DNA of 64,000 bases from Candidatus Poribacteria bacterium. GTDB lineage: Bacteria; Poribacteria; WGA-4E; WGA-3G. The stretch covers positions 5,681,821-5,745,820 of the forward strand of contig CBDBFT010000001.1 in the NCBI GenBank assembly GCA_965205065.1. The letters are read 5' to 3'. Below, one piece after another: positions 29,554 through 49,397 of the stretch (positions are counted from its first letter, which is position 1; every line of letters begins with the position of its first letter). Below the pieces are notes generated by a model that searched no databases, was not told where the DNA came from, and saw nothing but the letters and a program-made list of their open reading frames with translations. A program made the translations under genes and the position numbers.

Positions 29554-29561
29554 GTGTTTTA

Positions 29562-30557
29562 ATGCAAATACTAATTCTTGACATCGGCTGTTCATTTACA
29601 AAAGGTTACCTGTTCAATGATACATTAGATATCGTTGCAGACTTTAAAGTGGAAACCGATATATCTACACCTGGAACGCTTGAGGTAGGTGTGAGAGCAG
29701 TAATTTCTGAATTTAATAAGCACACCTATCAAGCGATCTTTCCACTTAGTTTTGGAGAAGGTGTTGTCTATAACAATATCATCTACGAACCGACACACAA
29801 CCGTGAGTCGCTCATAGATAACAACTATGGACAGACAGGTACACCTACGGATGTAAAGCGGGATATCGGTTCAGCCTTCCAGTCGCTTCTTACTTTTCCC
29901 TCTTATTCCAATGGACCAGCATTACCCGTGTCAACCTATATCGCTTCAAGACTCTCCAGGACTCAGATAGATAGGTGGGATTTGACCCACGCGGGGAATA
30001 GCGGTATGTTGAACGTTTCTCAGAGACAATGGTTTGTGGAATTGCTCAAAAAACATAAATGTGAGCCACTACCCTTTTCTACAGAATTCATGAGTTCCGC
30101 TACCATTGTAGGACATACAGAAAAAGGAGTTGCTGTTTTTGCTGGTGGACATGATCACAGTTGTATCTCAGTATTTGATCCCAAACCGATTATTATTGCG
30201 GGGACATGGGTGGTTATTAGTTATCCAGAGATAGCATTTATACCGAGAGAACAAGAGAAAAGTGCTGGTATTAGATGGACTATTACTGCAAATGGAGGTT
30301 ATCATAAACAGGTCGTAAAAAAAGTCTCCAATCCAATTACGGTTGCTGATATGAATTATATTATCTCAATCTACGAACGGATGCGAGTCCCCGAAAAATC
30401 GGAAGTCTATGTTATTGGCGGATATGGAGAAAAACTTGCTCCTGAGATGGATAGATTAGAGAGCCCATACCACTTTATAGCACCTCCAGAAGCGGAAGTA
30501 TACCAGCACAGACAGACAGCAAGATACGCATTTAGAGCATTGGAGCTACATAAGTGA
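29562..30557 (+). CDS. Short FGGY-family (rhamnulokinase/fuculokinase-like) carbohydrate kinase
   Basis: ILILDIGCSFTKG (phosphate-1 type), RWDLTHAGNSGMLNVSQRQW, FAGGHDHSCIS and AGTWVVIS resemble FGGY motifs. Only 331 aa. The stop overlaps the next gene. Confidence 0.5.
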   Translation: MQILILDIGCSFTKGYLFNDTLDIVADFKVETDISTPGTLEVGVRAVISEFNKHTYQAIFPLSFGEGVVYNNIIYEPTHNRESLIDNNYGQTGTPTDVKRDIGSAFQSLLTFPSYSNGPALPVSTYIASRLSRTQIDRWDLTHAGNSGMLNVSQRQWFVELLKKHKCEPLPFSTEFMSSATIVGHTEKGVAVFAGGHDHSCISVFDPKPIIIAGTWVVISYPEIAFIPREQEKSAGIRWTITANGGYHKQVVKKVSNPITVADMNYIISIYERMRVPEKSEVYVIGGYGEKLAPEMDRLESPYHFIAPPEAEVYQHRQTARYAFRALELHK

Positions 30558-30967
30558 AAACTGTTTTAGTTACGGGATGTTTCGACCTATTTCACTACGG
30601 ACATCTCAAATTTTTGGAAGCATCTGCCGCTTGTGGAGATTATCTTATCGTCGGTGTTGCTGAGGATGATACGGTACGTCGCGTCAAAGGGGAAAATAGA
30701 CCTATCTATCCACTTGAACATCGGATGGCACTTATAGATGCATGTAGACATGTAGATAAAGTTGAGGTATTCTCTTTAGAGTCTCAGCTGGATTTAGTTG
30801 CTCAAGTATCGCCGGATGTATGTGTCGAAGGTGCTGACGGTAACGCGAGGCTCAGAGAGATTCTTGAAGAGTTAGGTGTTAATACCCCAGTTCAGACAGT
30901 ATATACGGATTATATCCATACGACTGATATTGTCAGAAAGATCCTCAATGTATCATCAGGGACTTGA
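30554..30967 (+). CDS. Cytidylyltransferase-like nucleotidyltransferase (TagD / RfaE domain II type)
   Basis: 137 aa. VLVTGCFDLFHYGHLKFL carries the HxGH signature. 4-nt overlap with the upstream kinase. Confidence 0.8.
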   Translation: MKTVLVTGCFDLFHYGHLKFLEASAACGDYLIVGVAEDDTVRRVKGENRPIYPLEHRMALIDACRHVDKVEVFSLESQLDLVAQVSPDVCVEGADGNARLREILEELGVNTPVQTVYTDYIHTTDIVRKILNVSSGT

Positions 30968-30979
30968 GAATACCAGAAT

Positions 30980-32347
30980 TTGAAGCAGACTCACACGCAA
31001 GACCTATCTAAAAAGTTGAGAACTTTTGCCAAAATTTTGAGGCATGAACCTACACCTTGGGTAATGTTAATTACTTTTTCAGGGATGTGTTTGAGTCTCA
31101 TTTTTCATATCTTAATACCGTGGCAGCTTGATGTCAGCGAATCTGCGGATGCTCTAATTGCAGCATTAAAGGTCGTTCTTATAGTTGACATAATTTTTCG
31201 TGAGGGGGCAAAATTCAGTCTTGTTCCTCTTTTTATTGCTGAGGAAAGAACGAGAGTAAGCGTTGATTTTCAACGTTTCACAAGTGGTATCATAAACTTC
31301 TCACTATGTGTGGGTGTAGTTTTGATGTTGCTACTTACTTTACTGTCAACGCAAATAGCAGGTCTTTTACTTTCAAGTAGAACGGGTACGGTTCAAGCGG
31401 AAATGGCAACCCTCTTGCGATGGAGTGCACCGTTAGTCATCTTCGGTTCTGGGAGTACGATACTCGGTGCTTATTTAAATAGCCGAAAACACTTCAAGAC
31501 GGTAGCATTTCGAAATACGCTTCCACCAATGTTAGCAATCATAGTTTTGCTTTTTTGGACAGATACAGAGCAGTTAGTGTATTCTGTTTCTATTGCTTAT
31601 GCGGGTGGTTTTTTGGTCTACTTTGCGTGGCTGTGTTTTGGCATGTATCGCACCGGATACAGATATAGTTTTTCTTGGATTTCTATTGATGCGCTACGGT
31701 CTCTCAAGGATGCAATTTCTCTCCCAACAATGGGTTTCGCAATCCGGCAGTTGAGTGCAAGGATAATAGTTGAAGTTCTATTGGTTGGAAGACTGGGGAA
31801 AGGTGCTATTACACTATACAACAGTGCATTTCGTATTTTCTCTGCGATCCAGACACTGATTGGGATTAGTATAGCAACTACAGGATTGCCAGAAATGACA
31901 ACTGATAGCATTGAGAAAGACCTTAGAAAGCTGAATCAATCTCTATTACGCAAGTTACGTTGGGTGATATGTATTGCTATTCCACTATCCATCGTACTTT
32001 TTTTGGGTGCATCAAGAATTGCGCAGCTCCTATTTAGTGGGGATAAGTTCAATCCACAGGCTATAGAACAAATTGGAAAGCTCCTGATGTGGTTGAGTTT
32101 AGGAACAGTCTTTTCTTGCATGATTCCAGTATTAAATGCAGGTCTCTATGCACAGAAGGAATATGGATTGGTTTTCAGAAATATGGTGACTATGGCAGTC
32201 TTGAACCTCCTTATTGCAGTAGTGCTTTTGTCTGTTTGGGGACTCAACGGTATAGCGTTAACGATCTCTATTACGGCTTTCCTTGCCGTAGGTAATTTGG
32301 TTTTTCTTCTTAGTAAGTCAGGCGTGTTCTTTGTAAGAGGGACTTAG
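30980..32347 (+). CDS. Polysaccharide flippase (MOP superfamily, Wzx/MurJ-like)
   Basis: 455 aa, about 12-14 predicted hydrophobic helices, located in a polysaccharide locus. TTG start. Confidence 0.6.
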   Translation: MKQTHTQDLSKKLRTFAKILRHEPTPWVMLITFSGMCLSLIFHILIPWQLDVSESADALIAALKVVLIVDIIFREGAKFSLVPLFIAEERTRVSVDFQRFTSGIINFSLCVGVVLMLLLTLLSTQIAGLLLSSRTGTVQAEMATLLRWSAPLVIFGSGSTILGAYLNSRKHFKTVAFRNTLPPMLAIIVLLFWTDTEQLVYSVSIAYAGGFLVYFAWLCFGMYRTGYRYSFSWISIDALRSLKDAISLPTMGFAIRQLSARIIVEVLLVGRLGKGAITLYNSAFRIFSAIQTLIGISIATTGLPEMTTDSIEKDLRKLNQSLLRKLRWVICIAIPLSIVLFLGASRIAQLLFSGDKFNPQAIEQIGKLLMWLSLGTVFSCMIPVLNAGLYAQKEYGLVFRNMVTMAVLNLLIAVVLLSVWGLNGIALTISITAFLAVGNLVFLLSKSGVFFVRGT

Positions 32348-32376
32348 TATGGTAATACGGGACAAAGGTGCTATAA

Positions 32377-33354
32377 ATGACCAAAAAAAACACCGATTCA
32401 GAAAAACCTGTCAGTGACTATCAATATCTGATTGTGGGTGGGACAACAAAGGCAGCAACAACGTCCCTATTCTCTTATCTGGCAGACCATCCAACAATCT
32501 GTGCTGCGTCGTACAAGGAGACACGTTTCTTTCTTGACTCTGACTATCCGTTACCCTCAAAATTCAGATTTAAAGGTGATGTTGAAGAATACAATCAGTT
32601 GTTTACAGATTGTGATGAAAATCAGATAAGACTTGAGTCTACACCAGATTATCTCTACTGTTCTTATGCGCTTGAGAGAATTGCGGGGTTTTTACCACAT
32701 GCAAAATTGGTCTTCAGTCTTCGAGAGCCTATTTCAAGATTAGTTTCGTGGTATCGGTTTGCAGTTCAGATAGGAAGGCTGCCGAAGAGTCTTAACTTTG
32801 ATGATTATGCTGAAAGTCTACTTTCTGATACAGAACAGCAGGATTTAATGCGTGATGCAAAACCTTCTGACGTTCCCCAGTATATGCAGGCACTTCAGCA
32901 AGGTTGTTATAGCGATTATCTCAAACGGTATTATCGTATAATTGGTAAGCATCAAATATATACGTTGTTTTTTGAAGAACTTGCAGAGAACCCATTAAAA
33001 GTGCTTATTGATATTTGTAAATTTGCTGGGATTGAATCTGATTTCTATAAGGATTACACATTTAAGGTTACAAATCAAACTGAAACGATGCGGAATTCTG
33101 GGTTACATAACAACTATAGAACGTTAAGATACAAAATTCGGAAGTGGACACACAATAAACCGATAATACATGAACCGCTACGGGCAATGAAAAAAGCTAT
33201 AGAACCTTTATATCTGCGTTTAAATACTCGGTCTGAAGACGCTGTTTCCATATCGGATAAAACCCGTAGTCGGTTAATTGCGTATTTTAGATCGGATGTT
33301 GATGATCTGAGCAAGTTAATTGGTAAGAAACCACCATGGCAACCTTTTGAATAG
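32377..33354 (+). CDS. Sulfotransferase 1 (PAPS-dependent, Sulfotransfer_1-like)
   Basis: 5'-PSB loop LIVGGTTKAATTSLFSYLADHP. 3'-PB region SLREPISRLVSWY. Confidence 0.8.
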   Translation: MTKKNTDSEKPVSDYQYLIVGGTTKAATTSLFSYLADHPTICAASYKETRFFLDSDYPLPSKFRFKGDVEEYNQLFTDCDENQIRLESTPDYLYCSYALERIAGFLPHAKLVFSLREPISRLVSWYRFAVQIGRLPKSLNFDDYAESLLSDTEQQDLMRDAKPSDVPQYMQALQQGCYSDYLKRYYRIIGKHQIYTLFFEELAENPLKVLIDICKFAGIESDFYKDYTFKVTNQTETMRNSGLHNNYRTLRYKIRKWTHNKPIIHEPLRAMKKAIEPLYLRLNTRSEDAVSISDKTRSRLIAYFRSDVDDLSKLIGKKPPWQPFE

Positions 33355-33363
33355 GTTTTACGC

Positions 33364-34260
33364 ATGAATATTAAAGCAGAATCACTTATTAAATTGATGA
33401 TTGTTGGTGCTCAGAAGTCAGGCACTTCATCACTATTGCAATACTTAGCGCAACATCCGGATATCTACACACATCCTCAACCGGAGTTGACATATTTTCT
33501 TCAAGATCATGAATACGAAAAAGGATATGATCGAGCTTACACAAAATACTTCTCAAAATGTCCGCCAGATAAGACATTGATTGCGAAGAACGTGATGGTT
33601 ATGTGTTCGGCAGATAGAATGCAACGCATTCAGGAACATAATCCTGATATTCATCTTGTGATCCTCTTGCGTGAACCCGTTTCGCGGGCATACTCAGCAT
33701 ATTGGTGGGCACGTCGTAGAGGATGGGAGAACATCAAGACATTCGAAGCGGCACTTGAAGCAGAAAAAGACCGATTAAATGAAGATTGGTTTAAATGGAG
33801 ACAGTGTGCTTACACATTAAACAGTTTTTATGTTATGCATATAGAGTCCATTATTTCAATGTTTGATATAAAACAGGTTCACTGCATATTGACAGATGAA
33901 TTGAAAGTGGATGCAGGAAACGTGTGTCAAAAGTTATTTAATCTTATGGGTGTAAGCAGTGAATTTGAACCGTTGGTGGAAGAAAAACACAACCAAGCCT
34001 CCATGGCACGTTCAGAATCATTTAGTTTTCTGTTCACACAATTTCTCGCTTCACGGAATCCGTTGCGTCGTGCAATTCGCAAGTTGGTTCCTGATTCGGC
34101 GGCTTACAAAATCAGAAAAGCGGTTTTAGACATTAACGACAAACCTTTTTCACCTCCACCAATAAATCCTCAGACACAGCAAACATTAGCAGAATACTTT
34201 GCTCCTTATAATATTCAGCTTGCACAGTTAATAGGTCAGGATTTATCGCATTGGGATTAG
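33364..34260 (+). CDS. Sulfotransferase 2 (PAPS-dependent, Sulfotransfer_1-like)
   Basis: MIVGAQKSGTSSLLQYLAQHPDI and LLREPVSRAYSAYWW. Confidence 0.85.
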   Translation: MNIKAESLIKLMIVGAQKSGTSSLLQYLAQHPDIYTHPQPELTYFLQDHEYEKGYDRAYTKYFSKCPPDKTLIAKNVMVMCSADRMQRIQEHNPDIHLVILLREPVSRAYSAYWWARRRGWENIKTFEAALEAEKDRLNEDWFKWRQCAYTLNSFYVMHIESIISMFDIKQVHCILTDELKVDAGNVCQKLFNLMGVSSEFEPLVEEKHNQASMARSESFSFLFTQFLASRNPLRRAIRKLVPDSAAYKIRKAVLDINDKPFSPPPINPQTQQTLAEYFAPYNIQLAQLIGQDLSHWD

Positions 34261-34269
34261 TAGTTTAGT

Positions 34270-35619
34270 ATGGGTATAATCTATTTCCTCACCGGATACT
34301 TTGCTTTTGAAGAGTTTGTACTGAAGTTTCTTCCAGTCAGTGATGCAGTTTACTCTTATTTTAGATTCTTGGGTGAGATATTCATCTATGTAGCATTTGC
34401 TAAGCTTGTATTAAACAAACTCTATAAGGGTATCCCTTTTGTTAAAACACCTATTGATTTCCCAATTATTGGCTTCTACCTCGTTGTCTTTCTCTCAATA
34501 GTGATAAATCGTTCCCCTCTGGTAGGGAGTTTATACAATATTCGTCCACTTGCGCGATACATCGTTCTATTCTATCTGATTGTGAATTCTCCGTTATCTA
34601 AACAACGGATTGATACACTCATAAGGATAATTTTGTGTATTGGCGTAGTACAAATTGGAATCGGAATGATACAGTGGTTTGGTGGTCCTACAATATACGA
34701 TCTCTTTTTACCGCGGGCGTCCACCCTTGAGGTGGCAGGATTTACAAAGGAATTTAGATTGCTTGAAATTGGTAGAGAGATTGGCAGTATATACGGTACT
34801 TTAGGGGATACAGTTATATATGGTGTCTTTATGATCGTTGTATTGGTGATCTTTCTATCACGAGTCAAACGTCTTGAATACCTGAATCTACTCGCTATCG
34901 GTGTATTGTTGATGTTCATTGCAAGGTCATATTCTCGTGCAGCAACATTTTCAGCACTGCTCGCATGTGTTGTATGGTTCTTTTTTCAATACGGTTGGAA
35001 AAAAACGTTGCGTTTATCACTTGCCGTATTGTTGGTTTTCGGGGTATTATTGGCTATAGTAAATCCATTTGAACTGGAATATATCAATCCACGTAAAGCA
35101 AGAGTTGGTCTTGTGGGGAATGTAACGGGTGTATTCTCAGGTTCTTACGTTAAGGTTGCACAGAAGCAACGACTTGGTGCTATCCTTGGGAAAGCTCCTA
35201 CTGTATTAGCAAATAAACCTATTTTGGGGTATGGTGCTGACCAAAACACCACAATTGATAGATTGAACAAGAGTAAACGTTCTTTTCTCTTTAAAGTCCT
35301 AAGTAAGAAGGGTTTTAAAGATGTCTACTGGGTCGCTATTCTATGCTTTTACGGTGTTTTAGGATTAGGTCTGTTTGCATTCATATTTTACCGACTGTTT
35401 ATCGCATCATTAAGGTTATATAGACAAGCTGCTAACAGAATAACAAAAGAGATGGCTCTGGTGATGCTTTGTCTGGTTGTCGTTACAGTCTTCCTTCTCT
35501 TTTTCAATAGAACCCTTGAATTCAGGGGATACGGTTTCTATTTTTGGATGTGTGCTGGCATTATGTTCGTAAGCGATACAGCAATACAGACTTATAAACC
35601 GATAAAAATTACCTTATGA
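34270..35619 (+). CDS. O-antigen ligase/polymerase family membrane protein (Wzy-like)
   Basis: 449 aa polytopic protein. Central ARSYSRAATFSALL-type loop as in Wzy_C/O-antigen ligase proteins. Sits next to the flippase. Confidence 0.6.
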   Translation: MGIIYFLTGYFAFEEFVLKFLPVSDAVYSYFRFLGEIFIYVAFAKLVLNKLYKGIPFVKTPIDFPIIGFYLVVFLSIVINRSPLVGSLYNIRPLARYIVLFYLIVNSPLSKQRIDTLIRIILCIGVVQIGIGMIQWFGGPTIYDLFLPRASTLEVAGFTKEFRLLEIGREIGSIYGTLGDTVIYGVFMIVVLVIFLSRVKRLEYLNLLAIGVLLMFIARSYSRAATFSALLACVVWFFFQYGWKKTLRLSLAVLLVFGVLLAIVNPFELEYINPRKARVGLVGNVTGVFSGSYVKVAQKQRLGAILGKAPTVLANKPILGYGADQNTTIDRLNKSKRSFLFKVLSKKGFKDVYWVAILCFYGVLGLGLFAFIFYRLFIASLRLYRQAANRITKEMALVMLCLVVVTVFLLFFNRTLEFRGYGFYFWMCAGIMFVSDTAIQTYKPIKITL

Positions 35620-35629
35620 GTTTACCCTT

Positions 35630-37240
35630 ATGAATTTACAAACGATCTTGAATTCCAATTTGATAAGAAATATACTGATATGCTTTACACTCGGTATAAG
35701 TGTTGTTCTCCTAATGATGTTTAATTTAGAATGTAGCAGAAGAGGATCTGACAGAGATAGTGTTCAAATATATATTGATACTGAGTCTGCAGTACCTTTG
35801 CGGAAAGACCTTTACGGTTTCAATACAAATATGATGAGTGGGGATTATGGATACTTGGATAAAGACTTCATAGCATTAACAGAAACACTCAATCCGTCGA
35901 GTCTCCGTTTTCCAGGCGGAACAGTAGGTAACTTTTATCACTGGGATATTTCAGGTTTCTATGAAGATGAAATGAACACAACCCTTAGCACTCAACTCAA
36001 TAAGCGGAATAGAGGGAATTTCAATAGACTGAGAAAAAAACGGAATGGGAAGATTTCTTTTGACCACTTTATGAAGTTGTGCACTGATCTAAATATTAAA
36101 CCGATCATTATGGTCAATTTGTGGACAGGTTCTCCAGAAAAAAGTGCAGCATGGGTTCGTTATGCAAAAGAGATGGGGTATAACATTCGGCATTGGGAAC
36201 TTGGCAACGAACACTATCTGTCTCACTACTTAAACAGATTCCCTACAGTTCAAACCTATATGCAAACAGCGAAGGAACACGCGTTGGCTATGAAAGCAGT
36301 TGATCCAGAAATAAAGTTATCCGTGTGTGCTTCACCTGTTGCTTTTCATAAAGAAGGCTTCTTGTTAGCAACACCACAACGCAAGTGGGACAAAGGACTC
36401 GCTGACAATGTTTCTGAAGCTACAGACTGGTATGATGCATTCTCAGTGCATGTCTATGCCTATAAAGCCGTAAAGGATATAGAAATAGAGAAGATGAAAG
36501 CTTATCTATTCGGATGGATACATTTTGGTTTTGATGAAGCGATGGATTATTATCAGGAGTTGTTTCCAGATAAAGAGATGTGGGTCACAGAATGGAATAT
36601 AGCAAATCCTGCGAATAGAGTTGCCAACACACAACTCCATGCCATGTATGTCGGAGACTTTTTTATGAAAATGCTGAGTATTCCAAAGATCACACATGCA
36701 AACTTTCATGTCATAGCTGGCTACGGTAAAGGTTTCCCTGTTTTTTCCAAAGTTACACCGATTTCACAGAGAACATTCTGGAAATATGGCGGTGAGCCAG
36801 AATCAGACTATGGAGACACTATCCGTCGTACTGTATTTTACGCATTTCAGTTGATAGGTGAAGTGATTGATAGAGCAGAAACACTTTTTGACGTTTCACA
36901 AGAGAACGTTCATAAGTTTGAGGGGGAGTTAGACTATAAAGGCAAAATGATGTCTGGTATTCAGGTAAGAGTGATGGGTAACAAAGACACGTATTTCATT
37001 ATGATTAGCAATCATATCAGCGAAACTATTTCACCTATATTTTATATTGATGGAAAACACCTGAAAAAAGATGCAACGTATCGGTATGTAGCGAATGAGA
37101 ATCTCAAAGCAACTAATGGTGGTAATGCTGAGATGGAGGGTTCAGGTGAGATTGAAGTTAAGATTCAAGAATGGAAAGGTCATATCAAAGAGATCATAAT
37201 TCCAAAAAACAGTTTCGGTATAGTTGAGGTAAGAAAGTGA
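35630..37240 (+). CDS. Membrane-anchored or secreted clan GH-A glycoside hydrolase (family not assigned)
   Basis: N-terminal hydrophobic anchor ILICFTLGISVVLLMMF. Candidate acid/base HWELGNEHY and nucleophile MWVTEWNIA motifs typical of (beta/alpha)8 GH-A enzymes. Confidence 0.65.
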   Translation: MNLQTILNSNLIRNILICFTLGISVVLLMMFNLECSRRGSDRDSVQIYIDTESAVPLRKDLYGFNTNMMSGDYGYLDKDFIALTETLNPSSLRFPGGTVGNFYHWDISGFYEDEMNTTLSTQLNKRNRGNFNRLRKKRNGKISFDHFMKLCTDLNIKPIIMVNLWTGSPEKSAAWVRYAKEMGYNIRHWELGNEHYLSHYLNRFPTVQTYMQTAKEHALAMKAVDPEIKLSVCASPVAFHKEGFLLATPQRKWDKGLADNVSEATDWYDAFSVHVYAYKAVKDIEIEKMKAYLFGWIHFGFDEAMDYYQELFPDKEMWVTEWNIANPANRVANTQLHAMYVGDFFMKMLSIPKITHANFHVIAGYGKGFPVFSKVTPISQRTFWKYGGEPESDYGDTIRRTVFYAFQLIGEVIDRAETLFDVSQENVHKFEGELDYKGKMMSGIQVRVMGNKDTYFIMISNHISETISPIFYIDGKHLKKDATYRYVANENLKATNGGNAEMEGSGEIEVKIQEWKGHIKEIIIPKNSFGIVEVRK

Positions 37241-38262: not shown

Positions 38263-38325
38263 TAATTCAACTTATAATTTTGACACATTCTCATACCATT
38301 TCTTAAATCAAAATGCCTCTTTACT

Positions 38326-38350
38326 GTAGCACATTCTGTTAGATTGTGCC
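38326..38350. repeat. GTAGCACA-family hairpin, canonical copy
   Basis: gtagcacattctgttagattgtgcc sits in the only sizeable gap (38263..38437) of the polysaccharide gene array. Confidence 0.85.
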
Positions 38351-38437
38351 GTTCTCCGCTTCATTTCTAAACAGTCGGTAATGAGAGAAAAATTAATTGA
38401 AATGGTATCACATGTAATACAGGCTCACATATAAGAC

Positions 38438-41653: not shown

Positions 41654-41664
41654 AAAGGTGTCAG

Positions 41665-43725
41665 ATGGTAGATACTAAGCTTCACGGTGTGTTCTCCAAC
41701 ACATTTAGCCGTCGTGAATTCATTTCAAAAAGTTTGAAAACAGGTGCAGCAGCAGCAGCAGCATTCACTACAAGTCTTCTTCCCGCCTTAAACGTTTCGT
41801 CAAGTACACCATACAATGTACTGTTTTTTATGGTAGATGACTTACGACCTCTATTAGGTTGTTATGGACACGCGGAAATGCATACCCCCAATATTGATAG
41901 TATAGCTGAAAGAGGAACGGTTTTTAACAGTGCCTATTGTCAATTTCCGCTTTGTAGTCCTTCGCGAACGACGGTCATGACAGGACTAAGACCTGATTCA
42001 ACGCGTATATCTGAGAATAGAACTTTTTTTCGTGAAACTGTCCCGGATGTCGTTACGCTCCCTCAACATTTTAAAGATAGCGGTTATCATACACAATCCA
42101 TCGGAAAAGTTGCTCATATTCCTAAATTCCAAGATGATATGTATTCATGGAGCGTCCCATCATGGAGACCCTTATGGCCTCGATTTGATGAAACAACACT
42201 ATCATGGGAGGCTTTTGATGTTGAGGATGATGCGTTTAGAGATGGTAAAACAGCAATACGTGCTGTTCAAGTGTTGGATCAGATTAAGAACGATCAGTTC
42301 TTTTTGACGGTTGGATTTTACAAACCGCATCTCCCTTTACGAGCACCAAGAAAGTATTACGATTTATATGAAAACACATCCATTAACATTCCATTTACAT
42401 CAGGAGAAACTCCTATTGATATTAACCCGCCAGTATGGAATGAGGTGCGACCTTATGCGGATATATCATCCAAGCGGGAACCGATACCCTATAGCAAGAT
42501 GCTTGAACTGATTCGGGCTTATGCTGCTACAATAAGTTATGTGGACGCGCAAATAGGTCTTATCTTGAACAAACTTGATGTACTTGGACTGAAAGATAAC
42601 ACGATTATAGTCTTCTGTGGTGATCATGGCTATAATCTCGGAGAGCATGAGAACTGGGGGAAAAACATCGTCTATGAAGCAACACTACATTCACCTTTGA
42701 TTGTAAGTATTCCTGGACAGCTGGAGGTTGGCAAAAACACAGATGCACTGGTAGAACTTGTTGATGTATTTCCAACTTTATGTGATGCATGTCAAATTCC
42801 GATTCTACCTGAATTGGAGGGACTGAGCATGATGCCAGTTATAGACGACCCCGAAATCCCATGGAAAACTGCAGCTTTTAGTCAACGAAAGAACAAACGG
42901 ACAATCCGAACCGACGAATTCAGATACATTGAAGAAGGAAGGTATAAAGAACTTTACGACTATAGAACTGACCCGTATTCTGAAGTAAACGTGGTGGATG
43001 ATCCTGCGTATGTTGAACAGGTTGAACTGCTCAGTGAAAGACTACGAGCGGGTTGGCAAGAAGCATTACCTGAGAATATACCCCCACGCGTTGTGCCCCC
43101 TAACACATTACCTTGGGATATAAACAGTGATGGTATTGTTGATATTGAAGACCTTTTGCTCATATCTAACAGTTTCGGAATAGAGTCCCCTGACAACCCT
43201 AAAATTGATGTTAATGAAGATGGTAAAGTAAATATTATAGATCTGCTAATCGTTGCCGCGCATTTAGGGGAATCTTCTCAGACAGGTGCTCCAAGGACTA
43301 TTTCCATAGCAGATCAACACATAGACCGTGTTGAAGAATGGATTCATGATGCCCGTAAAATCAAGGATGCTTCTCCTATTTATCACAAAGGCATTAAAAA
43401 CTTAGAGATGTTGATCAATTCAGTTGTTCCAAATGAAACCAGACTCCTGCCCAATTTTCCGAATCCTTTTAACCCTGAGACGTGGATACCTTACGAGTTA
43501 GCAGAAAATGCAGATGTCAGAATAAACATCTATAATATAAGAGGTGAATCTATTAGAAAACTTGAAATCGGTTTTCAATCTGCTGGGACATATCGGACAC
43601 AGGTGAGTGCAGCACATTGGGATGGGCGAAACTCTGCAGGTGAACCTGTCTCCAGTGGTGTCTATTTCTATACACTTATTGCGGGAGATTTCACCACTAC
43701 CCGAAAAATGTTGATACGGAAATAG
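41665..43725 (+). CDS. Tat-signal iduronate-2-sulfatase-like sulfatase 2 with the same cassette
   Basis: TFSRREFISKSLKTGAAAAAAF. CSPSRTTVMTGLRPD. GDHGYNLGEH. DINSDGIVDIEDL and DVNEDGKVNIIDL. LLPNFPNPFNPETWIPYEL...GVYFYTL...KMLIRK. Confidence 0.9.
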   Translation: MVDTKLHGVFSNTFSRREFISKSLKTGAAAAAAFTTSLLPALNVSSSTPYNVLFFMVDDLRPLLGCYGHAEMHTPNIDSIAERGTVFNSAYCQFPLCSPSRTTVMTGLRPDSTRISENRTFFRETVPDVVTLPQHFKDSGYHTQSIGKVAHIPKFQDDMYSWSVPSWRPLWPRFDETTLSWEAFDVEDDAFRDGKTAIRAVQVLDQIKNDQFFLTVGFYKPHLPLRAPRKYYDLYENTSINIPFTSGETPIDINPPVWNEVRPYADISSKREPIPYSKMLELIRAYAATISYVDAQIGLILNKLDVLGLKDNTIIVFCGDHGYNLGEHENWGKNIVYEATLHSPLIVSIPGQLEVGKNTDALVELVDVFPTLCDACQIPILPELEGLSMMPVIDDPEIPWKTAAFSQRKNKRTIRTDEFRYIEEGRYKELYDYRTDPYSEVNVVDDPAYVEQVELLSERLRAGWQEALPENIPPRVVPPNTLPWDINSDGIVDIEDLLLISNSFGIESPDNPKIDVNEDGKVNIIDLLIVAAHLGESSQTGAPRTISIADQHIDRVEEWIHDARKIKDASPIYHKGIKNLEMLINSVVPNETRLLPNFPNPFNPETWIPYELAENADVRINIYNIRGESIRKLEIGFQSAGTYRTQVSAAHWDGRNSAGEPVSSGVYFYTLIAGDFTTTRKMLIRK

Positions 43726-43737
43726 GAGAGACAACAG

Positions 43738-45765
43738 ATGCAAGAAGATTCACAGCGGAAGGCAAGTTCTGGTTTCATGACCCGTCGTAGTTTCCTAAAT
43801 ACTGGTTTGAAAATTGGTGCTGCCACATTTACAACCGGTCTGTTACCACGTCTAAATGCACATAGTGAGAACAGATACAATGTTCTGTTCATGATTGTAG
43901 ATGATTTGCGTCCAATGCTTGGTTGCTACGGTATTGATGAAATGCACACCCCAAATATTGATAGGTTAGCAGAACGGGGAACGCTTTTCAATCGTGCTTA
44001 TTGTCAATATCCACTATGTAACCCGTCCCGTGCATCTATACTAACGGGATTACGTCCTGAGACGACGAAGGTGCACACCAATTCCGCTGACTATGAGCAT
44101 ACTGTTCCTGATGCTGTGGACATACCGCAGTACTTTATGGAACAAGGTTATAATACATATTCAATAGGTAAAATCAAGCACTATCCTGCCACCACCTCTT
44201 ATGCTGGAAAACCTTCATGGATAGCACTTGATGTGTCTGACGATGAACTGAATGATGGGATAACTGCAAAAAAATCTGAGGATCTCCTTGCTGAGATAAA
44301 GGATGAACTGTTCTTTTTAGCTGTCGGATTTGACAAACCGCATTTACCGCTTTACGCGCCGCGAAAGTACTTTGATTTATATGATGAAGATACTTTCAAT
44401 TTACCCATTACATCTACCTTTCCTCAGCATGCACCAGCTTATGCAGAAAACAGTATTGAATGGTTTAGAATATATCGGGACATACCATCTGGCGACGCGC
44501 CTATTTCTGATCAGAAGACCTTAGAACTCATTCGAGCTTACGCTGCTTCAACGAGTTACATGGATGCACAAGTTGGTCGAGTCCTAATGCAGTTAGATAA
44601 TCTGGAATTAACTGAAAAGACAGTTATTGTATTTTGTGGGGACCACGGTTTTCATCTTGGAGAACACGGAACTTGGCGGAAAAATACACTTTTCGAAATT
44701 GCTACGCGTTCGCCATTGATTATCAGTGTTCCGGGTCAGCAACCCTCACGAACTGATGCCTTAACAGAGCTTGTAGATATTTATCCTACTTTATGTGATG
44801 CATGTGACTTACCGATATCCAATCAGTTAGAAGGTTTGAGTCTCCTCCCTGTAATAGAAGAACCTAATAGGTCCTGGAAAACCGGGGCAATTAGTTTTCT
44901 GAGCCGTGGGGGTTCCAAATCCTATTCTCTTCGTACCGACAGGTACCGCTACACTGAATGGGGCCCGCGAGGGAAGTTTGGTAATGAACTATACGACTAT
45001 AACGTTGACCCGAACGAAACTATAAATGTTGCAGATTTTCCTGAATATTCAGAGCTTGTTGAACATCTAAAACAACGACTTCGTTCAGGTTGGAAAAACG
45101 AAATGCCGAATGGCGATAAAAATCCACCGATACCCAGGAGTATAATACCTTGGGATGTAAACAGTGATGGGATTGTTGATATACAAGACCTTATCCTCAC
45201 ATCAAATAGTTTTGGGATAGTGACTCCTGACAATGAGAGAGTAGATGTGAATAAAGATGGAAAAGTTAATATCATCGATTTATTAATTATAGCGGCGCAT
45301 TTAGGTAAATCTACCATCACCTCAGCACCACAAGTATCTTTATCCGTTTTACCCGAGCATGTTGACACTATTTCAGAATGGCTTATTGAGGCACGGAAAA
45401 TAGATGACGGTTCAGAAGTTTTTCGTAATGGGATAGCTAAGCTGGAAGCACTTTTTGATACTATAAATCCAGCAAAAACAGTACTTTTACAAAATTATCC
45501 CAATCCATTCAATCCAGAGACGTGGATACCTTACGATTTAGCGCAAGATGCAAAGGTGAACATTAAAATCTATAATCTGAAAGGTGAAACTATCAGAGAA
45601 CTTAATATAGGTTTTCAAAACGCAGGCAGCTACAGGAGCAAAGAATTGGCGGCATATTGGGATGGACGTAATTCTGCTGGTGAACTTGTCGCAAGCGGGG
45701 TCTATTTTTATAGTCTCAATACAGGTAGAGCAAGAGCAATCCGACAAATGACAGTTGTGAAATAA
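43738..45765 (+). CDS. Tat-signal iduronate-2-sulfatase-like sulfatase 3 with the same cassette
   Basis: FMTRRSFLNTGLKIGAATF. CNPSRASILTGLRPE. GDHGFHLGEH. DVNSDGIVDIQDL and DVNKDGKVNIIDL. LLQNYPNPFNPETWIPYDL...GVYFYSL...QMTVVK. Confidence 0.9.
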   Translation: MQEDSQRKASSGFMTRRSFLNTGLKIGAATFTTGLLPRLNAHSENRYNVLFMIVDDLRPMLGCYGIDEMHTPNIDRLAERGTLFNRAYCQYPLCNPSRASILTGLRPETTKVHTNSADYEHTVPDAVDIPQYFMEQGYNTYSIGKIKHYPATTSYAGKPSWIALDVSDDELNDGITAKKSEDLLAEIKDELFFLAVGFDKPHLPLYAPRKYFDLYDEDTFNLPITSTFPQHAPAYAENSIEWFRIYRDIPSGDAPISDQKTLELIRAYAASTSYMDAQVGRVLMQLDNLELTEKTVIVFCGDHGFHLGEHGTWRKNTLFEIATRSPLIISVPGQQPSRTDALTELVDIYPTLCDACDLPISNQLEGLSLLPVIEEPNRSWKTGAISFLSRGGSKSYSLRTDRYRYTEWGPRGKFGNELYDYNVDPNETINVADFPEYSELVEHLKQRLRSGWKNEMPNGDKNPPIPRSIIPWDVNSDGIVDIQDLILTSNSFGIVTPDNERVDVNKDGKVNIIDLLIIAAHLGKSTITSAPQVSLSVLPEHVDTISEWLIEARKIDDGSEVFRNGIAKLEALFDTINPAKTVLLQNYPNPFNPETWIPYDLAQDAKVNIKIYNLKGETIRELNIGFQNAGSYRSKELAAYWDGRNSAGELVASGVYFYSLNTGRARAIRQMTVVK

Positions 45766-45803
45766 AAGTGAGATGATTAACTATTTTTCAGAGGAAGAAA
45801 AAC

Positions 45804-47444
45804 ATGCAAAGTGAAAAAATCAACCGTATCGTTCTTGTATTCTGCATAATTGCACAATTCTGTTCTTTTTCGTCTGCCGAAGCAGCATCACTCATAAATG
45901 TTCCACTAAACCCAGATATATCAGACTTTAATACTGAAACCTACAGATTTATTCATCGTTTACTTAATAAACGTGTAGTGTCAGGTATATCGCGAGGGAC
46001 TCTACCGTATTCAAGAAAACAGGTTGCCTCTTTGCTGCTGGAAGTTTCACAAAAACTGGACAGAGGTGAAGTGGTGCTTAGTAGCAATGACCAAAAACGA
46101 TTAAAAGCACTGATGTCATTTTATGCTGAAGCGGGTACTGAGGTGCCTCCAAATCGTAGGTTACATCTGATGACACTCACAGATGAATCTACTTACCGTT
46201 TCTCATTTGATTTGCGTGCTGAACAGCGAATAATCACAAGATTAGTTGATAATGTCTCTGGATTGCCACCTGTTGAAGGAAACATGCATATCACGACACT
46301 TTACCCTCAATTATATGGACAGGTTGATGAGAGTTTCGCTTTTACAACAGACATGGCATACAGATTCCTATATGGTGATATTTTTGACGATCTCTTTAAA
46401 GATGAGTCAAAATATAGACAGTTGGAGGGACAACTCAAAAACAGAACGGCTGTGAATAGTTATCTCAAGTTTAAACTGCCATGGTTTGAAATGCAACTTG
46501 GACAAGATAATGTACAATGGGGTCCTGGCTATCACGGTAATCTAATGCTCTCTGCTTATCCAAATGCGATGGATATGCTGAAATTACAGACAACATACAA
46601 CAATGTTACATATACAGCATTTACCGGTATTTTGGAAGACTTATCGGTGGATATCAACAAGAAATATATTTCTGGACACAGAATTGAAGGTTATTTCTGG
46701 AATAGATTCGGTATCGGTTTATCTGAGGTTGTCGTCTTTGGGAATAGATTCGAACCGAGTTATCTGAATCCTGTTAGTATTTACCTCATCAGCGAACAAA
46801 CAATTGCCCGTGGTGATAGTCGTGTGCAGGGAAGTGGAGACAACATTTTGGCAAGTGTTGACCTACGCTTACGTCCATTCAATAATTTTGAGATATATGG
46901 TGAATTGATGGTAGACGATGGAAATCCTGCTGCAAGTTTTAAGCATTGGGATACAAAATTTGGAGTACTTGGCGGTATCTATCTTACGGATCCACTTGGC
47001 TTACAGGATACCGATGTGAATGTAGAATACGCCTTTGTTAACCAATATGCATATACGCATGTTAATCCGAATAATGTCTACAGACACTTCACTTCGGTCA
47101 TTGGACATCACATCGGTTCTGATGCAGACAGTCTTTGGATAGTATTTCGTAAACGTTTTACGGATAAACTTGAAACTGTTTTCGGATATGAACTTGAAAG
47201 GCATGGGGAAGGAGATGTAGCGTTAAGCCATCCCCCCGATGCACCTGCTGATGATGTATGGATACCTCTTTCTGGAATTACTGAGAGTGAACACCGTTTA
47301 AGGTTGGGGTTTAACTGGGTCGATATTGGTCGGTATTCAATCTATGGAGAATGGTCACGCATCTGGCGAAGAAATGTTGATAATATAGCGGATATGAATG
47401 AATCGGGGAATGAAATAGAAGCAAAAGCACTTTATCGTTTTTAG
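45804..47444 (+). CDS. Outer-membrane beta-barrel protein, possibly capsule-assembly Wzi-like
   Basis: Signal peptide IVLVFCIIAQFCSFSSAEA. N-terminal helical segment with TLPYSRKQVASLL, resembling the Wzi N-terminal motif. Alternating beta-strand-like sequence. C-terminal aromatic residue (ALYRF), typical of OMPs. Confidence 0.45.
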   Translation: MQSEKINRIVLVFCIIAQFCSFSSAEAASLINVPLNPDISDFNTETYRFIHRLLNKRVVSGISRGTLPYSRKQVASLLLEVSQKLDRGEVVLSSNDQKRLKALMSFYAEAGTEVPPNRRLHLMTLTDESTYRFSFDLRAEQRIITRLVDNVSGLPPVEGNMHITTLYPQLYGQVDESFAFTTDMAYRFLYGDIFDDLFKDESKYRQLEGQLKNRTAVNSYLKFKLPWFEMQLGQDNVQWGPGYHGNLMLSAYPNAMDMLKLQTTYNNVTYTAFTGILEDLSVDINKKYISGHRIEGYFWNRFGIGLSEVVVFGNRFEPSYLNPVSIYLISEQTIARGDSRVQGSGDNILASVDLRLRPFNNFEIYGELMVDDGNPAASFKHWDTKFGVLGGIYLTDPLGLQDTDVNVEYAFVNQYAYTHVNPNNVYRHFTSVIGHHIGSDADSLWIVFRKRFTDKLETVFGYELERHGEGDVALSHPPDAPADDVWIPLSGITESEHRLRLGFNWVDIGRYSIYGEWSRIWRRNVDNIADMNESGNEIEAKALYRF

Positions 47445-47583
47445 GCGATTGTCAGTAAACGTTGGTTTAAATGAATATTTCGTTCTTATTAGGTATCTAA
47501 TGAGTGTTTTTAGATAGATTGCTAATCGGAATAGAAGTACTAAAATTGATCTTGTAGGTTTATCATAGGTTGAAGGATTTTAC

Positions 47584-48702
47584 ATGAAGATTAGAGTGTT
47601 AGGAATCAGAGGACTTCCTGCTACTTATAGCGGTTCTGAGACAGTGATGGGTGAACTTGCACCACGTTGGGTTGAAGCTGGACATGAAGTGATTGTCTAC
47701 TGTAGAAAGGGGTTTTTCAAAGAAAGACCTTCAGAATGGAAGGGCATAAAACTCATCTACCTACCGAGTATTGAACATAAGATTTTTAGCACGCTTAGCC
47801 ATAGTTTCTTTGCGTCTATTCATGCATCTTTTTCTCCATCCGATATAGTTTTTGTTTGGAATGCTGGTAACGGTCCGTTCGGTTGGTTCTTCAGGATTTT
47901 TGGAAAGAAGGCAGTCATCAATGTTGATGGTATGGAGTGGTTAAGACCGAAATGGAAGGGTATAGGTGGGGTCTATTTCAAATGGGCAGCAAAGATGGCA
48001 ACTTCAGCCTTTCATAAGGTAATTACCGATGCTGAAGAGATGAAACGACTCTACCTTGAAGATTTAGGCGCAGAAACAACCTATATCGCCTACGGTGCGA
48101 ATATTGAACCTTCTGAACACCCTGAAGTTCTTGAGGAATACGGTCTACAGTCCAGAGATTATTATCTGATTGCCAGTCGTCTTGTCCCTGACAATAATGC
48201 AGACCTGATTATGGAAGCTTTTGTAACTTCTAATAGTGAGAAGAAACTTGCAATTGCTGGTGGTGCAGACTATAGAGGGAACAAAATGGAGAATGCGTTC
48301 TTGGATCAATTGAAAAGTATGGCGAATGAAAATGTGCTTTTTCTTGGTCATATTGACAATTCTGAGCATATTAAGGAACTACATCATCACTGTTTTGCTT
48401 ATATTCATGGACATCAGTTTGGTGGAATCAACCCATCTATTCTGAAAGCTTTAGGATTTTCTAACTGCATCCTGGCACTCAACACACCCTTCAACCACGA
48501 AGTATTGGAAGGGGGAAAATACGGTGTGCTTTTTGACAAAAATGCTGAATCCCTCAAAACTCAGATTGAATCTTTAGAACAGAATTTGGAAAAAGTTGAA
48601 GATTTTCGTCAACGTGCAACGGAACAGATACATAAACGTTTTAATTGGGACCACATTGCTGAACAGTACATAGATGTATTCACTGATTTACAGAAAAAAT
48701 GA
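47584..48702 (+). CDS. Glycosyltransferase (GT4-like with DUF1972-type N-terminus)
   Basis: MKIRVLGIRGLPATYSGSETVMGELAPRW is the DUF1972-type N-terminus, as I recall from rhamnosyl/glucosyl transferases of capsule loci. C-terminal GT-B half with HGHQFGGINPSILKALG. Confidence 0.7.
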   Translation: MKIRVLGIRGLPATYSGSETVMGELAPRWVEAGHEVIVYCRKGFFKERPSEWKGIKLIYLPSIEHKIFSTLSHSFFASIHASFSPSDIVFVWNAGNGPFGWFFRIFGKKAVINVDGMEWLRPKWKGIGGVYFKWAAKMATSAFHKVITDAEEMKRLYLEDLGAETTYIAYGANIEPSEHPEVLEEYGLQSRDYYLIASRLVPDNNADLIMEAFVTSNSEKKLAIAGGADYRGNKMENAFLDQLKSMANENVLFLGHIDNSEHIKELHHHCFAYIHGHQFGGINPSILKALGFSNCILALNTPFNHEVLEGGKYGVLFDKNAESLKTQIESLEQNLEKVEDFRQRATEQIHKRFNWDHIAEQYIDVFTDLQKK

Positions 48703-48743
48703 TGTCCTTTACAGATTCGAAAACAAATTAGGAAGCAAGCAAT

Positions 48744-49397
48744 ATGCCTGCTAAATATTACATTACAAAACCTGATCTCTCATATATGAACGACACAGCA
48801 GGACAGAATTCAGTTGATAGGCTTAACTCCTTTTATGCAAAGAGAGGAAAATATCTATTGGATTTTGTTGCGTCACTGTTCTTAATTCTGATATTCTCAC
48901 CTTTGATGCTAATTATAGCCGTATTGATAAAACTCTCTTCGCGCGGACCTGTGTTCTTCTCTCACGAACGAGTCGGTATAAATAATAGACGTTTTGTCAT
49001 ACATAAGTTCAGAAGTCTCCATATTGATACGCCATCTTATTCAGAGAAACCCGATTCAACTGATGATGTACGTATTACATCCGTAGGAAAGTGGATTCGG
49101 AAAACGAGCTTAGATGAATTACCGCAGCTATTTAATGTAATTAAAGGTGAAATGAGCCTTGTCGGACCTCGACCAGAAATGCCATTTCTTGCTGATCAAT
49201 ATGAGGAATGGGAGAACGAACGGCATCTTGTTAGACCTGGAATGACAGGCTTGTGGCAGCTGAGTCCACGTAGACGTGGGACGATTCGTGAAGGTATTCC
49301 TGTTGATTTAGAGTATATTGATAAGCTATCTTTATGGAATGACTTCAAGATTCTACTACGAACCTTCAAAGTCTTTTGGGATGATAACACATATTAG
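48744..49397 (+). CDS. Undecaprenyl-phosphate sugar-phosphate transferase (Bac_transf; WbaP/PglC-like initiating enzyme)
   Basis: One N-terminal TM segment. [24 protein letters not shown] and RPGMTGLWQ motifs. Confidence 0.9.

Follow-up and report, generated by a model that had tools for sequence, protein, structure and literature searches.

A conserved Wzx/Wzy-type gene locus of Candidatus Poribacteria with four sulfotransferases, predicted to make a multiply sulfated cell-surface glycan

Animals and algae are the typical producers of sulfated polysaccharides. In bacteria their genetic documentation is essentially cyanobacterial, in the form of synechan (PMC8205485), and one further case has been proposed for an actinomycete (PMC13390465). 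Poribacteria have been treated as degraders of sponge and reef glycans, and the matrix of the sponge host contains glycosaminoglycans (PMC8163846). Here we analyze a stretch of 64,000 nucleotides from a Candidatus Poribacteria bacterium (GenBank assembly GCA_965205065.1, contig CBDBFT010000001.1, positions 5,681,821 to 5,745,820 of the forward strand), hereafter the window, in which polysaccharide assembly genes, four sulfotransferases (ST1 to ST4), a glycoside hydrolase (GH) and three sulfatases lie in one string. We conclude with moderate confidence that this is a phylum-wide conserved Wzx/Wzy-type locus for the synthesis of a short-repeat, multiply sulfated cell-surface glycan, with sulfatases in the same gene string.

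Synechan is the product of the xss cluster of Synechocystis sp. PCC 6803. Like the poribacterial locus, xss is a Wzx/Wzy exopolysaccharide (EPS) cluster with sulfotransferases of the 3'-phosphoadenosine-5'-phosphosulfate (PAPS) type that belong to different subfamilies; the gene for the outer-membrane polysaccharide exporter (OPX) lies outside the cluster, and the sulfates are presumed to be added while the repeat unit is lipid-linked (PMC8205485). The proportions are different: synechan is made with two sulfotransferases and eight glycosyltransferases (GTs), giving an octasaccharide repeat with two sulfates, whereas four sulfotransferases accompany two to three transferases here. The xss cluster also includes a polysaccharide co-polymerase (PCP) and the regulators XssQ, XssR and XssS and is without hydrolase, Wzi or sulfatases, in contrast to the embedded GH and exported sulfatases of the window (PMC8205485). 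Moreover, synechan has been chemically proven, whereas the polymer discussed below is predicted from genes. The authors of the synechan study remarked that sulfotransferases had not previously been seen in other bacterial EPS clusters (PMC8205485). The wps-1 cluster of Actinoplanes missouriensis, described in 2026, is likewise predicted to direct the synthesis of a sulfated EPS; it has Wzx, an O-antigen-ligase-like Wzy, few GTs, an embedded glycoside hydrolase and two sulfotransferases, one of the heparan sulfate type (PMC13390465). It differs in coming from an actinomycete, in having a GH26 rather than a GH51-like hydrolase, in its PCP gene and adjacent sulfate adenylyltransferase/APS kinase gene, and in having no sulfatases, and its product is also a predicted one (PMC13390465). 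To judge from sequence, from which the functional steps are predicted, the poribacterial locus would be distinctive in four respects: four sulfotransferases acting on a very short repeat, a backbone fixed across the phylum, an embedded GH51-like lipoprotein, and exported sulfatases that have been linked to it since ancient times.

The locus consists of 15 co-directional open reading frames (ORFs) spaced by -4 to 175 nt (Table 1). The first-pass annotation, made from the DNA letters and a list of ORFs, had described 15 genes on one strand with hardly any gaps, and the ORFs were found at exactly those coordinates; profile searches agreed with its family names, with qualifications for the kinase, the nucleotidyltransferase, the flippase and the Wzy_C protein. 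Promoter and terminator scans of 29500-49450 gave nothing exceeding shuffled controls. Using the GH protein as anchor query in a sample of one genome per species, we obtained 60 loci with 54-92% identity, all of them in Candidatus Poribacteria or in Latescibacterota associated with sponges, along with three unrelated Paenibacillus matches at 22%; this agrees with a poribacterial origin of the window. Single loci compared with the window are designated by L numbers (L010, L032 etc.). The core order flippase-ST1-ST2-Wzy-GH-ST3-ST4-(sulfatases)-Wzi-GT4-PGT, in which PGT is the initiating polyprenyl-phosphate hexose-1-phosphate transferase, is kept in 44 species-level Poribacteria loci; since the same gene order recurs so often, the arrangement is not a matter of chance. 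In its fuller form the 5' part reads beta-helix gene and upstream GT4 gene (GT4up), where present, then a first hot spot (A), then either a GalE-like epimerase gene or a kinase and nucleotidyltransferase pair, then the flippase gene; on the 3' side, ST4 is followed by a second hot spot (B), Wzi, GT4 and PGT, and then by a convergent short-chain dehydrogenase/reductase (SDR) gene. Variants of this order include L031, L033 and L034, in which a 555-599-aa AAA_35/PD-(D/E)XK protein, apparently an ATPase plus nuclease, is inserted between ST1 and ST2 with the order otherwise intact. Between ST4 and the first sulfatase, L015, L018, L024, L028, L030, L034-L037, L040, L055, L057 and L064 share a conserved ORF of 174-192 aa that matches no Pfam family and does not occur in the window.

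Pfam matches of all four sulfotransferases exceed the cutoff. The best PDB matches of ST1 are 3rnl (2e-20) and a heparan sulfate NST (6e-9), and those of ST2 are 3rnl (3e-27) and heparan sulfate 3-OST-5 (6e-15). ST3 remotely matches polyketide-synthase (CurM-type) sulfotransferase domains and SULT2, ST4 matches the tyrosylprotein sulfotransferase TPST1 (3e-8), and NoeE is among the remote relatives of both. PAPS signatures had at first been reported for all four enzymes. The 5'-phosphosulfate-binding motif (5'-PSB) is indeed present in each (K25-A-A-T-T in ST1, K18-S-G-T-S in ST2, R14-S-G-T-T in ST3 and R71-S-G-T-T in ST4), whereas the R-[ED]-P form of the 3'-phosphate-binding motif (3'-PB) is restricted to ST1 (R116-E-P), ST2 (R103-E-P) and ST3 (R146-D-P); ST4 has R176-N-G..S at this place, similar to the R-D-G of tyrosylprotein sulfotransferases. 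The Arg and Ser of the 3'-PB are nevertheless present in all four enzymes (R116-E-P..S in ST1). The motifs survive proper alignment, as the PSB and 3'-PB residues are invariant or nearly so among 46 orthologs each of ST1 and ST2, 47 of ST3 and 45 of ST4. Glu residues that are candidates for a catalytic role, likewise invariant or nearly so in these 45-47 orthologs per enzyme, are found in the motifs KETRFF, PELTYF, GELHFF and LNEPKA. E48 of ST1 (KETRFF) is invariant or nearly so in 46 sequences, and the conserved Glu of ST4 lines up with the EET segment of TPST1 in a phmmer alignment; by comparison with 3-OST, NST and TPST enzymes, these residues are candidates for the catalytic base. Neither a signal peptide nor an N-terminal membrane segment was found in any of ST1 to ST4. 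ST1 is also without a transmembrane segment, and ST3 has a C-terminal hydrophobic stretch at aa 305-323. Fixed in a polysaccharide gene order in 44 genomes and with invariant cofactor residues, the four enzymes appear to be functional and to share a glycan substrate.

The elements of a Wzx/Wzy pathway that were found include an initiating transferase and a flippase of the MOP family. The flippase has about 12 hydrophobic segments and is MurJ-like rather than of the classical Polysacc_synt type; it is not the housekeeping MurJ, since its TIGR01695 score of 138 bits lies below the cutoff of 235. The PGT consists of the catalytic domain only and scores 265 bits against TIGR03025, 233 against WcaJ and 195 against WbaP, all below the equivalog cutoffs. 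The GT4 scores 182 bits against NF046071 (Cps2T, a rhamnosyltransferase family; cutoff 500). A second GT4, GT4up, lies further upstream. Its suggested contribution to the pathway is borne out by synteny: beta-helix gene, GT4up, epimerase and flippase are contiguous in the compact form of L032, and in about ten other loci a single FG-GAP gene separates GT4up from the core. A GT4up ortholog (70-76% identical) stands next to the core in L010, L011, L013, L028, L030, L032, L034, L038, L043 and L054. These gene arrangements support GT4up as a member of the ancestral locus and as the probable third transferase of the pathway.

The first-pass annotation had listed the two genes at the 5' end of the locus with the rest of the array. 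The kinase and nucleotidyltransferase occur in 13 loci only, exactly where other loci have a 331-aa GalE-like epimerase, so they are not core genes: the pair is a lineage-specific swap in precursor supply. The kinase has a phosphate-binding-like motif (LDIGCSFTKG), no NCBIfam match and no PDB sequence match at E<=10. The start of the nucleotidyltransferase gene overlaps the kinase stop by 4 nt, and its product scores 104 bits against rfaE_dom_II, the heptose-1-phosphate adenylyltransferase domain (RfaE-II), versus 46 against TagD, both below the equivalog cutoffs.

Median identities to the window proteins, computed over the 38 more distant loci, are 82% for GT4, 81% for PGT, 78% for Wzy and 69% for Wzi; they are 61-66% for ST1 to ST4, 64% for the GH, 59% for the sulfatases and 55% for the flippase. 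Surface-polysaccharide loci tend to diversify, with Wzy as a rule one of the genes that vary most. Here the backbone enzymes are the most conserved, which argues for a single repeat unit that is short, fixed and multiply sulfated. With three transferases to build the backbone and four sulfotransferases to modify it, the simplest prediction is a repeat of two or three sugars that carries up to four sulfates and is the same across the phylum. Hence we retain the proposal of the first-pass annotation that the Wzx/Wzy-type locus makes a multiply sulfated surface glycan, such a glycan being the most economical product of four intact cytoplasmic PAPS-type sulfotransferases. Its description as glycosaminoglycan-like, by contrast, is withdrawn: there are no uronic-acid or hexosamine genes in the locus, and the gene content includes no dehydrogenase, aminotransferase or acetyltransferase gene. 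Since the initiator is of the WcaJ/WbaP type, the GT belongs to the Cps2T/WchF family and such sugar genes are missing from the locus, a uronic acid-hexosamine backbone is unsupported, and the term should be used only in the sense of "highly sulfated".

From the gene content, synthesis would proceed as follows. The WcaJ/WbaP-type transferase would load hexose-1-phosphate onto undecaprenyl phosphate, and the Cps2T-like GT4, probably together with GT4up, would add one or two sugars. At the cytoplasmic face ST1 to ST4 would then place up to four PAPS-derived sulfates, after which the sulfated unit would be flipped outward by the MurJ-like flippase and polymerized by the Wzy_C protein. On the periplasmic side the lipid-anchored GH51-like hydrolase may process or release the chains, and the Wzi-like barrel would retain the polymer at the surface. 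The sulfatases would work outside the cytoplasm, apart from the sulfotransferases.

Table 1. Coordinates of the locus, its genes and the related upstream genes in the window
Feature	Coordinates	Strand	Evidence
Whole locus	29562-49397	+	15 ORFs
ASKHA/FGGY-like sugar kinase, subclade-specific	29562-30557	+	FGGY_N 27.5 bits, cutoff 28.8 (weak)
Nucleotidyltransferase, 137 aa, cytidylyl/adenylyl-transferase superfamily	30554-30967	+	CTP_transf_like 74.6 bits
MOP-superfamily flippase, MurJ-like	30980-32347	+	MurJ 138 bits, MatE 37 bits
ST1, PAPS-type carbohydrate sulfotransferase	32377-33354	+	Sulfotransfer_1 48 bits
ST2, PAPS-type carbohydrate sulfotransferase	33364-34260	+	Sulfotransfer_1/_3; PDB matches
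Wzy_C-family multi-pass membrane protein	34270-35619	+	Wzy_C 25 bits, cutoff 31.7
GH, membrane/lipid-anchored clan GH-A hydrolase, GH51-like	35630-37240	+	N-terminal anchor or lipoprotein signal
ST3, Sulfotransfer_3 enzyme	37237-38262	+	Sulfotransfer_3 91 bits
ST4, Sulfotransfer_3 enzyme, TPST-like	38438-39439	+	Sulfotransfer_3 85 bits
Sulf1, exported S1_7-like formylglycine sulfatase	39500-41653	+	Sulfatase (PF00884) 164 bits
Sulf2, paralogous exported sulfatase	41665-43725	+	Sulfatase 147 bits
Sulf3, paralogous exported sulfatase	43738-45765	+	Sulfatase 144 bits
Wzi-like outer-membrane beta-barrel	45804-47444	+	Caps_assemb_Wzi 98 bits; Sec-type signal peptide
GT4 with DUF1972, Cps2T/WchF-like second-step glycosyltransferase	47584-48702	+	Pfam
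PGT, initiating polyprenyl-phosphate hexose-1-phosphate transferase	48744-49397	+	Bac_transf 212 bits
Beta-helix (NosD/Beta_helix) lipoprotein	14921-15814	+	NosD 41 bits, Beta_helix 40 bits
GT4up, GT4 glycosyltransferase	15821-17023	+	Glycos_transf_1 104 bits
Three leucine-rich repeat (LRR) proteins, dockerin-like module and type IX secretion system (T9SS)-type C-terminal domain	19984-26858	+	LRR_4 193-254 bits, Dockerin_1, FlgD_ig/Por_Secre_tail
FG-GAP/UnbV_ASPIC beta-propeller, same tail	26893-29553	+	FG-GAP_3 121 bits, UnbV_ASPIC 54 bits

The GH is placed between Wzy and ST3 in every Poribacteria locus. Its AlphaFold model, built from 26 sequences, is a confident one with a pLDDT of 75.6 and a pTM of 0.79, and in a Foldseek search with it the top 45 matches were all GH51 (TM 0.57-0.67), the best being alpha-L-arabinofuranosidases (TM 0.6-0.67, 12-19% identity), with a GH79 beta-glucuronidase and GH44 as the next structural neighbors. 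E194 (GNEHY) and E321 (TEWN) are invariant in the 26 sequences. The protein is thus modeled as a (beta/alpha)8 barrel plus beta-sandwich with the acid/base Glu (in NE) and the nucleophile Glu placed as in GH51. Phmmer matches extend at most over query residues 69-276, an N-terminal portion of the catalytic domain, the score against the ArfA model is 50 bits (cutoff 625), and a PF22848 match is precomputed for orthologs. Most poribacterial orthologs have a lipobox (...GC), which reads ...NLEC in the clade of the window. A search of 1.84 billion representatives at E<=1e-30 gave 52 clusters, so the family is of modest size. We liken the position of the gene to that of the hydrolases and lyases inside the Psl, cellulose and alginate operons and of the GH26 gene in wps-1 (PMC13390465). 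PslG is a membrane-anchored enzyme of clan GH-A, and PslG, BcsZ and AlgL have a role in chain processing or release in their EPS operons. As would be the case here, the Psl, Bcs and Alg operons encode a periplasm-facing enzyme that cleaves the operon's own product; they differ in that the enzymes are of other GH families, the polymers are unsulfated and none of the operons is known to combine the hydrolase with sulfatases.

The Latescibacterota homolog of the GH is 57-61% identical and has a Sec signal. Its gene lies in a different setting (L039-L052 and L059, at about 5000-11500), in the order LarA_N, PhyH, signal-less sulfatase, SSF symporter, GH, which, read from sequence, looks catabolic. 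One reading of this is that a co-resident symbiont also feeds on the GH substrate; another is that the two phyla act on a similar glycan of the host. LarA_N, PhyH-like and SSF genes also abut a half-locus in Poribacteria, in L025, which together with the Latescibacterota neighborhoods is a hint that genes have passed between symbionts residing in the same sponges. Among the window proteins the nearest to the GH-adjacent Latescibacterota sulfatases is a sulfatase at 57616-59019 (-), which has a CSPSR motif and no signal peptide; its gene is convergent with that of a 657-aa DUF6785/DUF6784 protein (55641-57614, +).

The sulfatases of the locus had been described as iduronate-2-sulfatase-like and exported, and they are both. 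Their best PDB matches are 6hhm (8e-76) and human iduronate-2-sulfatase (5fql/6ioz, about 1e-55), with others far behind; these entries are members of SulfAtlas subfamily S1_7. Sulf1 has a twin-arginine translocation (Tat) motif RREFL at aa 21, CNPSR at aa 99 and NFPNPFNPETWIPY at aa 628; the corresponding Tat and catalytic motifs are RREFI and CSPSR in Sulf2 and RRSFL and CNPSR in Sulf3 (Tat motifs encoded at 39560-39574, 41710-41724 and 43783-43797). The C-terminal tail consists of two dockerin-like DVNxDGxV calcium loops, a linker and a NYPNPFNPETWIPY beta-sandwich. Against the T9SS type-A sorting domain TIGR04183 (cutoff 23), Sulf1 scores 24.2 bits and Sulf2 30.9; Pfam Por_Secre_tail stays below its cutoff, and FlgD_ig exceeds its own for several tails. 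Among the 69 sulfatases of the compared loci, 66 have the RR motif, 66 the CxPSR motif and 68 the tail. As the sulfotransferases are signal-less and the sulfatases have Tat signals and a C-terminal domain (CTD), sulfate addition would be cytoplasmic and sulfate removal extracytoplasmic. Most likely the sulfatases strip certain sulfate esters, whether from the polymer after its export, from host matrix glycans that resemble it, or from both. The same logic, sulfate added inside and taken off outside, applies to animal heparan sulfate with its extracellular Sulf1/2 enzymes, and there is a likeness at the superfamily or subfamily level, since ST1 and ST2 are nearest to NST and 3-OST and the sulfatases are near iduronate-2-sulfatase. 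The animal system differs in having its sulfotransferases in the Golgi rather than the cytoplasm; here assembly would take place on undecaprenyl phosphate, and there is no sign of a GlcA/IdoA-GlcN backbone.

How firmly the sulfatases belong to the locus can be judged from the ST4-Wzi interval. In 25 of the 28 intervals that are fully visible there are one to three S1_7-type sulfatases, and further loci have at least four. Single-sulfatase loci mostly have the Sulf3 type, which is also the commonest beside Wzi in other species. Of the three intervals with zero sulfatases, one (L016) retains a catalytic-domain fragment (E of about 1e-16 to 1e-17), a second (L032) a tail fragment (1e-39), and the third (L022) is clean; we therefore rejected the sulfatase-free loci as the ancestral state in two of three cases. 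For 49 of 51 sulfatase copies the best match lies in the locus of another species. This led us to reject a recent tandem duplication as the origin of the array and means that the paralogs are older than the species and have been kept since. Where the locus is interrupted after ST4, as in L021 and L023, a sulfatase is found 5' of the sulfotransferase-bearing part. In our reading the S1_7 sulfatases are long-standing, co-expressed members of a surface island.

A gene for the Tat component TatC lies at 51751-52566 (-), 2.3 kb 3' of the locus and near the Tat-signal sulfatases; SDR, Cu-oxidase_4/YfiH-like and CT398-like zinc-ribbon protein genes lie in between. T9SS cargo uses Sec, and in Porphyromonas gingivalis a Wzx/Wzy-made anionic glycan (A-LPS) anchors it at the surface. 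The poribacterial sulfatases share the type-A C-terminal beta-sandwich domain of that cargo and combine it with a Tat, not a Sec, signal. They also differ in the dockerin-like module before the CTD, and T9SS machinery has been reported absent: Kamke et al. (2014) described many TIGR04183 proteins in Poribacteria and no Por/T9SS structural genes, which leaves export unexplained (PMC3909097). On other Poribacteria chromosomes cohesin, dockerin and the same CTD, in some cases with WD40, stand on single proteins (L065 3029-5125 and 10001-10951; L066 10001-11191). This suggests surface cohesin-dockerin assemblies to which dockerin-bearing sulfatases, LRR and FG-GAP proteins could bind.

Upstream of the kinase, the window departs from the compact form. 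GT4up is split from the core by a transposase gene (17274-18422), a lamin-tail-domain (LTD) protein gene, the three LRR genes and the FG-GAP gene. The LRR genes of hot spot A have the tail in common with the sulfatases, and their presence differs between loci; in most loci an ortholog of the FG-GAP/UnbV_ASPIC gene (55-93%) directly precedes the gene for the epimerase or kinase. With these LRR and FG-GAP/ASPIC tail-bearing proteins the locus looks like a surface-coat island. The beta-helix protein, whose N-terminus (...ALCGC) is lipobox-like, is likely the outer member of the ancestral locus. Transposase genes or fragments are found at 5983-6931, 9359-10207 and 17274-18422, of the types DDE_Tnp_4 (split over two overlapping ORFs), DDE_3/IS630-like and Transposase_31/YhgA-like, the last sitting exactly where GT4up parted from the rest of the locus.

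Near its 5' end (100-1447, -) the window has a prokaryotic viperin gene (NF038283, 329.6 bits, cutoff 180) beside a gene for a thymidylate-kinase-like nucleotide kinase, which looks like an antiviral defense pair of the pVip type. A full-length bacterial Pnkp for RNA repair is encoded at 12309-14873 (+), with kinase, phosphatase and PNKP_ligase domains (ligase 596 bits); it has no obvious Hen1 partner, as there is no ORF of >=100 aa in the 2 kb 5' of it and the beta-helix lipoprotein gene lies 3'. Within 2 kb of DNA that is free of ORFs of >=100 aa, a 30-bp tandem repeat (10907-11057) is present in five copies with 99% matches. It has no spacers and is therefore not CRISPR-like.

Several observations weigh against a sulfated surface polymer edited by its own sulfatases. 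No ATP sulfurylase (sat/cysDN), APS kinase (cysC) or CysQ gene was found in the window, and that PAPS is supplied can be predicted only from the strong purifying selection on the cofactor residues of ST1 to ST4. ST3 and ST4 resemble characterized enzymes only remotely, and none of these (CurM-type, TPST) is a glycan sulfotransferase. The Wzy_C match of the window protein lies below the Pfam cutoff, so that polymerase and ligase are both candidate identities. There is no PCP (Wzc/Wzz) or OPX (Wza) among the window ORFs of >=150 aa, nor a recognizable homolog within about 10 kb of the related loci; of a Group 1-type capsule set, Wzi is present, but neither the window nor the DNA flanking the related loci has Wza, Wzb or Wzc. 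By analogy with the OPX gene of Synechocystis, Wza and Wzc may be encoded elsewhere in the genome. For the maturation of the sulfatases, the window has neither a formylglycine-generating enzyme (FGE) nor an anaerobic sulfatase-maturating enzyme (anSME); the radical-SAM gene at 551-1447 was considered as an anSME and rejected, as it scores 329 bits against viperin (cutoff 180) and 38 against the anSME model. The dockerin and CTD tail is found on at least 6806 proteins, some encoded far from the locus. In Latescibacterota the GH gene stands beside a signal-less sulfatase and a Na+/solute symporter, with no sulfotransferase nearby. Finally, we found no paper that reports a sulfated polymer from Poribacteria or links them with sulfotransferases or sulfated-polymer synthesis, and searches combining Poribacteria with PAPS, sulfate assimilation, T9SS or dockerin gave nothing relevant.

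The alternative that survives best is that the sulfatases are unrelated to the polymer, as perhaps is the GH: they would belong to the large poribacterial family of surface proteins and be foraging enzymes for host or algal glycans that are merely co-transcribed in a recombination-prone hot spot. This is possible, though we consider it doubtful. Sponge-associated Poribacteria are rich in glycoside hydrolases and carbohydrate esterases directed at the tissue of sponges and the organic matter of reefs (PMC8163846), the loci have anywhere from zero to at least four sulfatase copies, and the set around the Latescibacterota GH (sulfatase, SSF symporter, LarA_N, PhyH) has the catabolic look that such a role would predict. 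The hot spots also accept LRR genes, one downstream in L034 and one between Wzy and GH in L031. The tail, too, occurs on proteins of other kinds (LRR, FG-GAP, WD40, cohesin and EF-hand as well as sulfatase), and the two carriers that we examined both lie in unrelated neighborhoods; we therefore rejected the tail-bearing genes as locus-specific, and, given how widespread the tail is, their presence near the locus is not special per se. However, the ST4-Wzi interval is occupied by the S1_7 type only, and its genes stand in the middle of the string rather than at its edge. The paralogs are old and have been kept throughout the phylum, the remnants left after two of three losses mark presence as the ancestral condition, and the split loci L021 and L023 keep a sulfatase beside the part that bears the sulfotransferases.

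A second alternative accepts sulfation but not a long free polymer. The Wzy_C protein would be a WaaL-type ligase or a PglL-type O-oligosaccharyltransferase that transfers one sulfated oligosaccharide to lipid A-core or to the tail-bearing proteins, perhaps as an anionic anchor. Pfam Wzy_C is centered on O-antigen ligases, and the match of the window protein is weak, although a PF04932 match is precomputed for most orthologs; the protein is unusually conserved for a polymerase, and there is no chain-length regulator or Wza in the window. An AlphaFold2 model built from 23 close orthologs has a pLDDT of 42, too low for a fold search, and a profile of the same alignment gave no match to PDB sequences at E<=10. 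Seven tail-bearing genes are packed around the locus, and the many TIGR04183 proteins of a phylum with no reported Por/T9SS structural genes (PMC3909097) would fit such an anchor. Tail-bearing genes are common far from the locus too, however, and Wzi suits a polymer. Reading the Wzy_C sequence, we did not find the His of the WaaL motif H[NSQ]x9G, and K350-D351 stand at the corresponding place. Wzi proteins serve in capsule retention. We regard this second alternative as rather unlikely. Least likely is that there is no sulfated glycan at all, with some or all of the sulfotransferases acting on lipids, peptides or small molecules or the locus inactive for want of PAPS: the remote CurM-type, TPST and NoeE matches of ST3 and ST4 and the lack of PAPS genes in the window would allow it, but it is opposed by the fact that in 44 genomes all four keep their cofactor residues and their fixed places among polysaccharide genes, and that two of them (ST1 and ST2) are nearest to carbohydrate sulfotransferases.

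A short-repeat, multiply sulfated surface glycan is thus our preferred product. Four sulfates per two or three sugars is a heparin-like charge density. A bolder idea, which we put forward as speculative and improbable, is that a dense coat with up to this many sulfates imitates sponge matrix glycans, so that the bacteria are tolerated and not phagocytosed; the surface sulfatases would edit the coat, which may also anchor the T9SS-type CTD proteins. If true, bacteria would have their own version of the "sulfation code" that animals write with sulfotransferases and Sulf enzymes. A gene string that pairs cytoplasmic sulfotransferases with exported sulfatases would be, to our knowledge, the first case of built-in sulfate editing in a bacterium, and four new sulfotransferases with a small set of transferases could serve the microbial making of sulfated glycans. 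A four-sulfotransferase locus that is phylum-wide in uncultured sponge symbionts would extend sulfated-polysaccharide chemistry to a new lineage, and the locus offers a concrete, testable hypothesis about the surface that abundant symbionts show to a host with phagocytic cells.

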